NCBI RefSeq assembly: GCF_003334385.1
Contig: NZ_QOWN01000038.1
From: Escherichia coli
Lineage (GTDB): Bacteria > Pseudomonadota > Gammaproteobacteria > Enterobacterales > Enterobacteriaceae
Length of the DNA: 42,323 bases
Strand: one strand, 5' to 3'
Under the pieces are notes generated by a model. That model was given only the letters and a program-made list of their open reading frames with translations, was not told the origin of the DNA and ran no database searches. The translations under genes and the position numbers were made by a program. Positions 7,917 to 9,541 of the stretch are shown here, piece by piece. Numbering within the stretch: position 1 is the stretch's first letter; the number at the start of each line of letters is the position of its first letter.

Positions 7917-8714
7917 AACTTGCTCCTTAGCCGTTATCGTTTCGAATATGTCATCCTTTTCATTATTTACATCCTTGTCCGAATCGTTGTTCAATATAGT
8001 AAACGCCTATAAGAACTTTACCCTTCGTGAACTAATACGTCTATTAACACTAATCAATACTTCAGATTTATCCATCACGCACTCCATATATTGATCCTAA
8101 GTAAGATTCCTGGTTGTTATCAGCTTGTAAATAGCAAACAAAAAGTTAACGTTTGCGGATTACTGCCCAAGAATAAGTTATCAATAACCAGTTTGTGATC
8201 TCTGAAGAATATTACTAAAGTTAAAATGTAATCCGATTTAAATATCGAGTCTCCTTGTTTCGACTTAAGCTGGCAATTGGATTGCCAGCTTTCTTTTAAC
8301 GCATTGAAATTACCTGAGTAAATAACGCATTCATGTCTTCAGGTTTTTATATAGCGTCTGGAGACACGGATATTTATGCAATGTAATCAACGCCAGTTGC
8401 AAAAAAATGAACCCGGATTACTTATTTAACCGCCCATAGCATCAACGCTTACGGAACTCTTTGTTCACTTTCCCACAGCACTTTTAAAACATTAAACCTG
8501 ACTACGGAAAATATCAGCCATGATAATGTTTGAAATGGCTAATTTGCCATAGAGTGAAAAAAATTAGATGAAATTCAGTAGGTTGAAATAATCACTAGCA
8601 GGTAATTATTTCAATGATAGTGCGCAATTGATCTACAACACTACGTAGCGGAGAGAGTATTAATCGGATCATAGTCACATCAAGTGACTATGATCCGGGT
8701 GACAACCGGGGTAA
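7917..8714 (-). promoter_or_regulatory. Large ORF-free gadE upstream control region (798 bp)
   Basis: 798-bp AT-rich stretch between the hdeD stop and gadE start with no credible ORF; matches the known unusually long multi-promoter gadE regulatory region. Individual promoters and binding sites not resolved by eye. Confidence 0.55.
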
Positions 8715-9287
8715 TTATTGCTGCTTAACGAACAAACTGGCGAAGCTGAACAGGCTGGCGGCGCTAAATATCAGTTCAATTCCCACCAGTGTGGAAACCA
8801 GCGTTACAGACACCATCGGCGTTGCACCAAGGAATATCCAGGCAATGACGATATCCAGCACACCAATAACGAGCTGTAGCCAGCTGCCTTTCATTGAACG
8901 CTGACGATACCAACTCATCAGGCGAATAACCCCTGCAACACAGAACAAACCGGCAATAAATGCCGCAATGGCAAAAATGCCCAGCTCCGGTGCGCGGATG
9001 AAGAAATAGCCGATCAATAAATAGGCGACTGCGACGAGGAAACCGGATAATACCGGCCAGAAATTATGACTGCGGTTGCTGAATAACCCGACAATAAGCG
9101 CAATACCCGAGCAGATTAATAATGCACCCACTACTGTGCTTAAAATATCGCCAGAGACGAACGGGAAACTGATACACAGCAACCCGACGATAAACAGCAG
9201 CACGGCAATAAACTGGATTGCTCTGCGATGTTTTTTAAGCATCTCCAGATCAAACTTCAAAATTGTTGCCTTATCTATATATAACAT
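8715..9287 (-). CDS. hdeD: Acid-resistance inner membrane protein HdeD
   Basis: 190-aa multi-TM ORF (MLYIDKATILKFDLEMLKKHRRAIQFIAVLLFIVGLL...), divergent from hdeAB; length matches HdeD. Confidence 0.95.
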   Translation of the reverse strand: MLYIDKATILKFDLEMLKKHRRAIQFIAVLLFIVGLLCISFPFVSGDILSTVVGALLICSGIALIVGLFSNRSHNFWPVLSGFLVAVAYLLIGYFFIRAPELGIFAIAAFIAGLFCVAGVIRLMSWYRQRSMKGSWLQLVIGVLDIVIAWIFLGATPMVSVTLVSTLVGIELIFSAASLFSFASLFVKQQ

Positions 9288-9364
9288 AGAACCACCCTAT
9301 AAAATTAAGAAGAAAATCCCCTGCTATCAATCTATGCCAAAAACGCGTCTAAGAATGCAGTCGA

Positions 9365-9383
9365 TTTAATAAAAATTTCCTAA
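9365..9383 (-). promoter_or_regulatory. Candidate GAD box (GadE/GadX/GadW site) in the hdeD-hdeA divergent promoter region
   Basis: Minus-strand reading TTAGGAAATTTTTATTAAA resembles the recalled 20-bp GAD box consensus (TTAGGATTTTGTTATTTAAA); lies in the 254-bp hdeD/hdeA intergenic region. Confidence 0.3.
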
Positions 9384-9541
9384 TTGCAGTATCTGATGCA
9401 TCTGTAACTCATTGTATTGAAATAAAAATATCTGATTTTGATATTTTCCATCAACATGACATATACAGAAAACCAGGTTATAACCTCAGTGTCGAAATTG
9501 ATTCGTGACGGCTCTTTCACTTTATAGTTGAGGATATTACG

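Follow-up and report, generated by a model that had tools for sequence, protein, structure and literature searches.

We found that positions 7917-9541 of the window (the whole 42,323-nt stretch of E. coli DNA that was analysed) almost certainly comprise two control regions of the E. coli acid fitness island that lie side by side and have been characterised before, and that a 20-bp sequence within them, at 9364-9383, is a real GadE site. The features of these regions are already published, they hold no new biology, and no observation runs counter to this picture. The window is the reverse complement of the acid fitness island of E. coli K-12, and 7917-9541 is the same as in MG1655 except for a single SNP at 8643 (A here, G in K-12), so that the published K-12 maps apply directly. 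This SNP lies upstream of the gadE promoter P3, in a weakly conserved stretch, and makes no functional difference. Published coordinates were converted from NC_000913.2 to NC_000913.3 with an offset that is +1977 in this region; when the offset was checked, the ChIP-exo peaks of gadA, gadBC and yhiM each fell on a TTAGGA box. In what follows, in vivo occupancy, transcription starts and regulator dependence come from papers, and identity to K-12, matrix significance, geometry and conservation were established here. Conservation was analysed in seven Escherichia lineages, the six others being 84-96% identical to the window; across them the GAD box, the block 9418-9447, P1, ArrS and P3 were conserved and the stretches between them were variable.

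The GadE site lies between hdeD (8715-9287, minus strand) and hdeA (9542-9874, plus strand; both in the ORF list and the RefSeq annotation), in an interval of 254 bp with 33.1% G+C (9288-9541). The sequence-only reading had noticed a GAD-box-like sequence there. The minus strand of 9365-9383 is indeed TTAGGAAATTTTTATTAAA, and the full 20-mer, TTAGGAAATTTTTATTAAAT, occupies 9364-9383; it matches the classical GAD box TTAGGATTTTGTTATTTAAA at 15 of 20 positions and has an intact TTAGGA core. Plain counting of mismatches against the 20-bp consensus did not discriminate, as four positions of the window tie for the best match at 15/20; the hdeD box was the only one of these top hits with the TTAGGA intact. 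The degenerate GadE motif of Seo et al., TTARGAWWWWAAATA, was also set aside: it misses the 3′ half of the hdeD box and even that of the gadA box, and for this reason we built matrices from the peak sequences. The matrix was trained solely on GadE ChIP-exo sites elsewhere in the genome, outside the tested regions. The scan, chosen beforehand as the test that could refute the likeness, was strongly positive: the hdeD box scored 23.3 bits and ranked second of 84,608 window positions, exceeded only by the yhiM site, which belongs to the training set. Dinucleotide shuffles of the 254-bp interval reached a maximum of 5.7±3.6 bits, and none of 2000 attained the observed score. With a noisier 7-site matrix the box scored 19.7 bits, a value attained by 0.25% of shuffles. 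The sensitivity of the matrix is limited (the P1 site described below scored 6.9 bits), so a negative scan would not exclude binding.

The box is also conserved. It is invariant in six of the seven Escherichia lineages, while the adjacent 9384-9417 varies; 95% of its columns are invariant, against 53-68% in the flanks, and the two G's of TTAGGA, at 9379-9380, occur unchanged in every one of the seven. Among complete E. coli genomes, 5414 of 5426 have at least 95.8% identity over the 48 nt around it.

In MG1655, GadE occupies this sequence in vivo. The GadE ChIP-exo peak P10 of Seo et al. (2015), assigned to hdeD at −54, has a signal-to-noise ratio of 41, the second strongest of 16 GadE peaks; measured in MG1655, it converts to 9362-9390 of the window, where the sequence is identical, and thus covers 9364-9383. 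The sites at hdeD and hdeAB-yhiD are listed by the same authors as previously characterised and confirmed (Supplementary Table 4), and deletion of gadE lowered expression of hdeD and hdeAB. The centre of the box is at −51.5 from the hdeD start. By position and orientation it is first of all the box of hdeD; relative to the hdeA start it is at −117.5 and inverted. GadE binds this asymmetric 20-bp box on the minus strand and from it would activate both hdeD and the divergent hdeAB-yhiD.

We compared the hdeD box with the GAD box of gadA and gadBC. The likeness extends to the TTAGGA core with both G's, the downstream TTAT, the orientation towards the activated gene, occupancy by GadE in vivo, and a promoter that is GadE-dependent and RpoS-associated. 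In contrast to these boxes, the hdeD box is a 15/20 match, serves two divergent promoters, and is centred at −51.5 where theirs are at −63. This brings it nearer to the start by about one helical turn, so that it lies about 6 bp instead of 16 bp upstream of the −35 region. According to PMC2887963, binding by a GadE-RcsB heterodimer has been demonstrated at gadA, where one G of the box is critical and its change to C (mutation M1) abolishes binding. GadE most likely binds the hdeD box as the same heterodimer; whereas the requirement for RcsB is demonstrated at gadA, at hdeD it would hold by analogy. The GadE sites at yhiM (TTAGGATAAATTTTTATTTA, 30403-30422) and yjtD, from the same ChIP-exo experiment as the hdeD site, share the core and have nearly the same AT-rich tail, AATTTTTATT. 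The spacing between core and tail at yhiM is, however, 2 nt longer than in the hdeD box, and the yhiM and yjtD peaks are much weaker (signal-to-noise ratio 1.5-2.5 versus 41).

Could the TTAGGA...TTAT match at 9364-9383 be a chance likeness in AT-rich DNA, with no specific regulatory role? The 33% G+C of the interval, the mostly A/T composition of the 20-mer and the tie with three unrelated window positions in mismatch counting would fit such an origin. The failure of every shuffle to attain the matrix score, the TTAGGA core found in this top hit alone, the invariance of the box beside a variable 9384-9417 and its place inside a strong GadE peak all speak against it, and we regard chance resemblance as effectively refuted. 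It is also highly improbable that the box serves mainly another LuxR/FixJ-type regulator (RcsB alone or with another partner, DctR/YhiF or EvgA) or nucleation of H-NS, with an indirect GadE ChIP signal. This explanation draws on the resemblance of the left half of the GAD box to an RcsB half-site and on the failure of GadE alone to bind the gadA box in vitro, both reported in PMC2887963, as well as on the coverage of the whole locus by H-NS and StpA (Seo et al. 2015, Supplementary Table 5). The same paper, however, finds both GadE and RcsB in the species bound at gadA, so GadE is part of the complex there. Moreover, not only do the hdeD and hdeAB transcripts drop upon gadE deletion, but induction of hdeD and hdeAB by YdeO falls sharply in a gadE deletion strain (PMC4222967), and overproduction of AppY does not induce hdeD when rpoS and gadE are both deleted (PMC10057817). 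Binding of GadE, most likely together with RcsB, is therefore the reading that we retain for the hdeD box.

On the hdeA side, the core promoter of hdeAB (9456-9491, plus strand) has a −35 element ATGACA (9456-9461) and a −10 element TATAAC (9479-9484), both read from the sequence, and a start at G 9491. This start is implied by the ChIP-exo table, and PMC3658693 describes the hdeAB start as '+1G'. A further GadE peak, P9 (9485-9516), lies over the hdeA start; beneath it we found neither a GAD-like sequence nor a matrix hit, so GadE may act on hdeAB through the shared box. Alternatively, P9 may reflect indirect cross-linking. The hdeAB promoter would additionally carry a GadX/GadW-type box at about −54: ATATCTGATTTTGATATTTT (9428-9447, plus strand; centre −53.5 from the hdeA start) is the best match in the whole window, at 17 of 20 positions, to the GadX/GadW consensus quoted by Seo et al. 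(2015). The IUPAC form of their motif misses this box by four mismatches; the plain consensus ranks it first in the window. Another, weaker GAD-like match (9417-9436, minus strand) overlaps this box, and 93% of the columns of the block 9418-9447 are invariant. A GadX/GadW site is drawn in the hdeAB control-region figure of PMC3658693; the ChIP-exo data of Seo et al. (2015) lack the known GadX site of hdeAB.

The hdeD transcript starts at 9322, as implied by the ChIP-exo table and independently confirmed by the placement of its start codon at +36 to +38 (PMC5861431), which leaves a 35-nt 5′ UTR (9288-9322, minus strand), which the small RNAs CyaR and RprA target.

The second control region lies between hdeD and gadE (7389-7916, minus strand, 175 aa; in the ORF list, RefSeq b3512), the start codon of gadE being position 0 of the published promoter map. 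It had been described from sequence as a 798-bp, AT-rich and ORF-free leader. Exactly 798 bp do separate the two genes (7917-8714, minus strand), their G+C content is 36.0%, compared with 47.0% for the whole window, and they contain no credible ORF. The word leader holds for part of the interval: the longest gadE 5′ UTR is 566 nt (7917-8482), but the other 232 bp are promoter and upstream DNA. The interval is the gadE 'sensory integration' region of K-12 (Sayed & Foster 2009; Ma 2004; Itou 2009), identical in locus and in its length of 798 bp, with the positions of P1, P2 and P3 carried over unchanged. Comparison with the published promoter map (PMC3708157), which had been suggested as a check, gave a match, with transcription starts at −21, −124, −324/−317 and −566. 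The distances to starts in the ChIP-exo table, after conversion, reproduced −124 and −566. A σ70 promoter scan was uninformative here, as it returned 3 sites, against 6.4 in shuffles, and missed every mapped promoter. The 798 bp form an AT-rich platform, silenced by H-NS, on which several signals are integrated.

Start −124 corresponds to 8040 and defines the T1 5′ UTR (7917-8040, minus strand), in which 87% of columns are invariant among the seven lineages; the minor start at −21 is 7937. In the table of Seo et al. (2015) a GadE peak is at −55 from the T1 start. This peak, P11, converts from NC_000913.2 3656193-3656227 to 8078-8112 and contains TTAGGAT; within it lies the GadE autoregulation site of P1, TTAGGATCAATATATGGAGT (8081-8100, minus strand), centred at −50.5 from the T1 start. 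Its matrix score is weak, and drops to about 0 bits with a matrix built without micF. Activity of P1 was abolished in a gadE deletion strain (PMC3708157); GadE auto-activates P1 through this weaker GAD box. P2 (starts 8233/8240) responds to EvgA and YdeO, and P3 (start 8482) to GadX, GadW, AppY and ArcA. The P3 region (8471-8550, minus strand; start −566 = 8482) has 82% invariant columns, and the GadX and GadW ChIP-exo peaks convert to 8462-8570. They enclose ATGGCTGATATTTTCCGTAG (8502-8521, minus strand), a GadX/GadW/AppY site by motif match, with two mismatches, that fits the AppY motif ATGSCWGM reported at the P3 −35 (PMC10057817). Further upstream, at 8584-8613, two inverted ATTTCA hexamers (TGAAAT, 18 nt, ATTTCA) form an inverted repeat that fits the definition of the YdeO box in PMC4222967 and is conserved in E. 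coli only. As YdeO binds gadE p2/p3 according to the same paper, we infer that the repeat is a YdeO box.

An antisense or leader-encoded small RNA had been mentioned for this leader and left without coordinates; it is ArrS, a 70-nt cis-antisense RNA at 8228-8297 on the plus strand (RefSeq ncRNA b4704, NC_000913.3 3657985-3658054). The window sequence is 100% identical to the K-12 annotation, with no mismatch to MG1655 across 8228-8297. In the gadE T3 leader, positions −312 to −381 are complementary to ArrS, which also overlaps the T2 5′ ends (8233/8240). It ends in an intrinsic terminator, an 11-bp stem (8267-8291) followed by TCTTTT, and folds with a minimum free energy of −20.2 kcal/mol (z=−3.8), which none of 200 shuffles equalled; 90% of its columns are invariant among the seven Escherichia lineages. 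Rfam was scanned with the whole window at the gathering threshold and with 7850-9600 at permissive settings, and neither scan returned a family for ArrS or for anything else in the interval. Elsewhere in the window Rfam recognized GadY, GadF/ES205, AgrB and ES036. In the literature ArrS is described as complementary to the longest gadE transcript, induced by acid and in stationary phase, involving RNase III, and dependent on σS and GadE (PMC6755755). ArrS is transcribed antisense to the 566-nt T3 leader, pairs with it perfectly and, according to this literature, alters both the processing and the stability of gadE mRNA through RNase III. The island encodes one further cis-antisense small RNA, GadY; it, too, overlaps the mRNA of a regulator and acts with RNase III. 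GadY pairs with the gadX-gadW mRNA, however, whereas the partner of ArrS is the 5′ leader of gadE T3, and in Rfam GadY has an entry (RF00122, at 1308-1421 of the window) while ArrS has none.

Upstream of arrS, CTAAAGTTAA (8215-8224, plus strand) ends 4 nt before the annotated 5′ end and is likely an extended −10 element of the σS type. At 8167-8186, on the plus strand and pointing towards arrS, lies a candidate GAD-like box, CCAAGAATAAGTTATCAATA, whose centre is as far from the arrS start (−51.5) as that of the hdeD box is from the hdeD start. It scored 16.2 bits (rank 4 of 84,608; about 1.5% of shuffles of the region reach this score) and kept rank 5 when micF was excluded from the matrix. 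It has a 13-mer, AAGAATAAGTTAT, in common with the GadE ChIP-exo site at micF; 80% of its columns are invariant, and the variant in E. albertii, TCAGGAATAAG, is nearer to the consensus. No GadE ChIP-exo peak was called at 8167-8186 by Seo et al. (2015). A RegulonDB-derived table lists no transcription factor for ArrS, and Aiso et al. (2011) may already describe the site. The spacing, the 13-mer and the E. albertii variant lead us to propose tentatively, at somewhat less than even chances, that CCAAGAATAAGTTATCAATA is an operator through which GadE activates arrS; together with the σS-like −10 element, such a box would be consistent with the reported dependence of ArrS on σS and GadE. If this is true, GadE would directly control both P1 of gadE and the antisense RNA from a divergent pair of sites separated by 66 bp.

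It is very unlikely that the 798 bp conceal a further small RNA or the unannotated gene of a small protein, so that their length would reflect coding or RNA content beyond regulation. In 7917-8714 the only ORFs of at least 40 aa were gadE itself, extended to a TTG start, and a 63-aa plus-strand ORF (7903-8094) that lies antisense to the start of gadE. ORFs that begin with ATG and span 17-48 aa occur on both strands, for example one of 26 aa (8087-8007, minus strand) in the T2 and T3 leaders, and K-12 has annotated small proteins, yhiY, yriA and yriB, elsewhere in the region. A conserved hairpin at 8665-8697 could also be counted in favour of hidden content. The conserved blocks of the interval, however, are the known promoters, binding sites and ArrS, whereas 8298-8470 and 8551-8714 are indel-rich, with 3-24% of columns invariant, unlike coding sequence. 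K-12 RefSeq annotates arrS alone in the interval, and Rfam recognized nothing else. A coding role for the small ORFs was rejected, as the conservation pattern does not fit. The poorly conserved middle of the T3 leader (8298-8470, minus strand; 3% of columns invariant) lacks 66-100 bp in E. albertii, E. whittamii and two further lineages. A repeat or mobile-element origin of this E. coli-specific stretch was also considered and rejected, since it matches no repeat family. We therefore keep to a regulatory reading of the interval. The hairpin itself (minus strand) is a perfect 14-bp stem without a U-tract directly 3′ of the hdeD stop codon; across the seven lineages 94.5% of cells pair, and two pairs show compensatory changes. 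It is likely the 3′-end structure of the hdeD mRNA, and may correspond to an RNA 3′ end not described before.

The locus governs glutamate-dependent acid resistance, which allows E. coli and Shigella to survive in the stomach, and the MdtEF efflux pump is expressed from the same promoter as gadE. The region is heavily studied, and its annotation would gain at most two minor items, the GAD-like box near arrS and the hairpin after hdeD. The locus remains a textbook example of many signals converging on a single long, H-NS-silenced promoter with an antisense RNA.

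From the ORF list, the control regions analysed here (7917-9541) lie in the gene order mdtF, mdtE, gadE, hdeD (minus strand), hdeA, hdeB, yhiD (plus strand), dctR, slp (minus strand). A megablast search found 7300-9900 in 5417 of 5426 complete E. coli genomes, chromosomal every time and annotated as gadE, hdeD and hdeA. The window is the reverse complement of NC_000913.3 at ~3.62-3.67 Mb; below position 13052, subtracting the K-12 coordinate from 3666282 gives the window position. The strain resembles K-12 without being MG1655. Of nine SNPs relative to MG1655 in the first 13 kb, a single one falls within the analysed regions (8643, A for G, upstream of the gadE promoter P3), and yhiS (12569-13792, minus strand) is an intact 407-aa ORF without the IS5 that splits it in MG1655, a difference that bears on 13052 onward. 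Because of this near-identity, the published K-12 maps are valid here base for base. Elsewhere in the window, Rfam matched the known small RNAs AgrA/AgrB (16705-17019, minus strand, beside dinQ), ES036 (25797-25837, minus strand) and GadY (1308-1421, minus strand), as annotated in K-12. The automated RefSeq annotation of the K-12 MG1655 assembly NZ_CP032667.1 has a ‘hypothetical protein' at 7110-7388 (plus strand); the ORF is antisense to GadF, the gadE 3' UTR small RNA (Rfam ES205 at 7200-7271, minus strand), and the call is probably spurious.

The minus strand at 9365-9383 reads TTAGGAAATTTTTATTAAA, just as the sequence-only reading had it, and the complete 20-mer of this GAD box (the type of GadE or GadE-RcsB operator known from gadA and gadBC) is 9364-9383. 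It is identical to the classical box TTAGGATTTTGTTATTTAAA at 15 of 20 positions, the joint best in the window, and alone among the top window matches contains the TTAGGA core. As an independent source for a matrix we used the GadE ChIP-exo peaks of Seo et al. 2015 (PMC4918353, Supplementary Table 1) outside the tested regions (gadA, gadBC, yjtD, micF, gltBD, iraP and, inside the window, yhiM), aligned on the core. Conversion from NC_000913.2 to NC_000913.3 (+1977 in the hdeD/gadE region) was validated by the gadA, gadBC and yhiM peaks, each of which falls on a TTAGGA box. With the matrix of five clear sites, the hdeD-hdeA 20-mer scored 23.3 bits, ranking second of 84,608 window positions below only the yhiM training site; the maximum in dinucleotide shuffles of the 254-bp interval (33.1% G+C) was 5.7±3.6 bits, and 0 of 2000 reached 23.3 bits. 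With seven sites it scored 19.7 bits, again ranking second, a value reached in 0.25% of shuffles. The matrix scan proposed in the sequence-only reading as its refuting test was thus strongly positive. A negative scan would have settled little, because matrix sensitivity is low: the GadE site at gadE P1, which has experimental support, reached only 6.9 bits, and ~0 bits without micF in the matrix.

Published occupancy agrees with the site seen by eye. After conversion, GadE peak P10 of Seo et al. (hdeD, -54, signal-to-noise 41; peak numbers are distinct from those of the gadE promoters) covers 9362-9390 and encloses the GAD box, and hdeD and hdeAB-yhiD are previously characterised GadE sites confirmed in that study (Supplementary Table 4; PMC4918353). 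Peak P11 (gadE, -55) falls at 8078-8112 on gadE P1, the GadX and GadW peaks at gadE fall at 8462-8570 on P3, and P9 (hdeAB, +9.5) falls at 9485-9516 over the hdeA start. We found no GAD-like sequence under 9485-9516; this peak may reflect indirect cross-linking via RNA polymerase or via a DNA loop. A figure legend in PMC3658693 already describes the hdeAB control region with GadE, GadX/W, H-NS and MarA sites.

The ChIP-exo distances imply transcription starts at 9322 (hdeD), 9491 (hdeA), 8040 (gadE -124) and 8482 (gadE -566), the last two reproducing -124 and -566, relative to the start codon, of the published gadE promoter map (PMC3708157). The hdeD start is independently confirmed, as PMC5861431 puts the start codon at +36 to +38, and the base at 9491 is G, in agreement with the hdeA +1 given as a G in PMC3658693. 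The GAD box is centred at -51.5 from the hdeD start, oriented toward hdeD, and at -117.5 from the hdeA start, inverted. The gadA box has the same orientation but is centred at -63 (PMC2887963), so the hdeD box is about one helical turn closer.

We searched species-representative genomes with a degenerate nucleotide pattern encoding the HdeA motif WTCEDFLAVD and retrieved six further lineages (E. albertii, E. whittamii, two other Escherichia species and two divergent ‘E. coli'), which share 84-96% identity with the window across 7300-9900. In the seven-sequence alignment, the proportion of invariant columns was 95% in the GAD box (9364-9383; a single substitution, in one of seven lineages), 68% on the hdeD promoter and 5' UTR side (9288-9363), 53% between the two boxes (9384-9417) and 93% in a second conserved block (9418-9447). 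The 48 nt round the GAD box are at least 95.8% identical in 5414 of 5426 complete E. coli genomes. Upstream of gadE, invariant columns made up 87% of the 5' UTR of T1, the P1 transcript (7917-8040), 82% of P1 with its GadE site (8041-8120), 30% of the stretch from P1 to a candidate arrS box (8121-8166), 90% of ArrS (8228-8297), 3% of the middle of the leader of T3, the P3 transcript (8298-8470), 82% of P3 (8471-8550) and 24% upstream of P3 (8551-8714). The middle of the 566-nt T3 leader is indel-rich, with 66-100 bp deleted in E. albertii, E. whittamii and two other lineages, and therefore looks dispensable or E. coli-specific. The WTCEDFLAVD pattern also matched several Methylocystis and Methylocystaceae genomes (six loci), which points to HdeA-like genes carrying the same motif in methanotrophic alphaproteobacteria.

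The gadE upstream region is exactly the 798 bp described (7917-8714; gadE start codon at 7916, hdeD stop codon beginning at 8715), and its AT-richness (36.0% G+C versus 47.0% for the whole window) and freedom from ORFs hold, with none of at least 40 aa inside except a 63-aa antisense ORF spanning the gadE start. The leader small RNA, mentioned without limits in the sequence-only reading, is ArrS, RefSeq-annotated at 8228-8297 (plus strand), with an 11-bp terminator hairpin and then TCTTTT at its 3' end (fold -20.2 kcal/mol, z = -3.8). It is complementary to the T3 leader from -312 to -381 and therefore overlaps the 5' ends of T2, the P2 transcript (8233/8240). According to published work, sigma-S and GadE induce ArrS, which can pair with the longest of the gadE transcripts by complementarity, works together with RNase III and has a further target in trans, cfa (PMC6755755). 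Our RNA scans (whole window, and a permissive scan of 7850-9600) were silent on it because Rfam has no ArrS family. A GAD-like 20-mer, CCAAGAATAAGTTATCAATA, lies at 8167-8186 (plus strand), -51.5 from the arrS 5' end. It ranks fourth or fifth of 84,608 in the matrix scan, also with micF left out, has the 13-mer AAGAATAAGTTAT in common with the GadE ChIP-exo site upstream of micF, and is conserved, the E. albertii variant being nearer consensus. Seo et al. 2015 called no GadE ChIP-exo peak on it, and a RegulonDB-derived table gives no known transcription factor for ArrS. Judged by sequence, 8167-8186 may be an unlisted GadE operator of arrS.

Other elements accompany these sites. At gadE P3, ATGGCTGATATTTTCCGTAG (8502-8521, minus strand) matches the GadX/W motif and also fits the AppY motif ATGSCWGM, reported at the P3 -35 (PMC10057817), and two ATTTCA hexamers in inverted orientation (8584-8613) conform to the published definition of a YdeO box (PMC4222967). 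The hdeA promoter block 9418-9447 contains the window's best GadX/W consensus match (17/20; 9428-9447, plus strand), centred at -53.5 from the hdeA start and overlapped by a weaker GAD-like match (9417-9436, minus strand); a 12-nt direct repeat, AATAAAAAT(T/A)TC, is shared by the 9417-9447 block and the main GAD box, 53 bp apart. A perfect 14-bp hairpin without a U-tract follows immediately after the hdeD stop codon (8665-8697, minus strand) and is kept in 7 of 7 Escherichia lineages, with 94.5% of cells pairing. Its two compensatory changes (G-C to C-G; A-U to C-G) may have arisen in one evolutionary step. The hairpin could form the 3' end of the hdeD mRNA or stabilise it, or the palindrome could be bound by a protein.

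For the GAD box, the shuffle statistics, its conservation and the enclosing ChIP-exo peak rule out a chance match. Since expression here depends on gadE, the reading in which another regulator or H-NS is the main user of the box is disfavoured. The 798-bp interval is unlikely to conceal coding sequence or a further RNA, because all of its conserved parts coincide with known elements. In published work, H-NS/StpA silence the whole locus, which opens under inducing conditions; GadE auto-activates gadE P1 (PMC3708157) and occupies the GAD box 9364-9383, and full expression of hdeD and hdeAB requires it (PMC4918353, PMC4222967, PMC10057817). By analogy with gadA, the complex at the hdeD box would be the GadE-RcsB heterodimer, presumably contacting RNA polymerase from about -52, and the peak over the hdeA start would be an indirect signal. 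Two small leads remain, the GAD-like 20-mer at 8167-8186 and the hdeD hairpin, and neither affects the verdict. Every feature flagged in the sequence-only reading is already published; the finding holds, is unexceptional and has been explained before.
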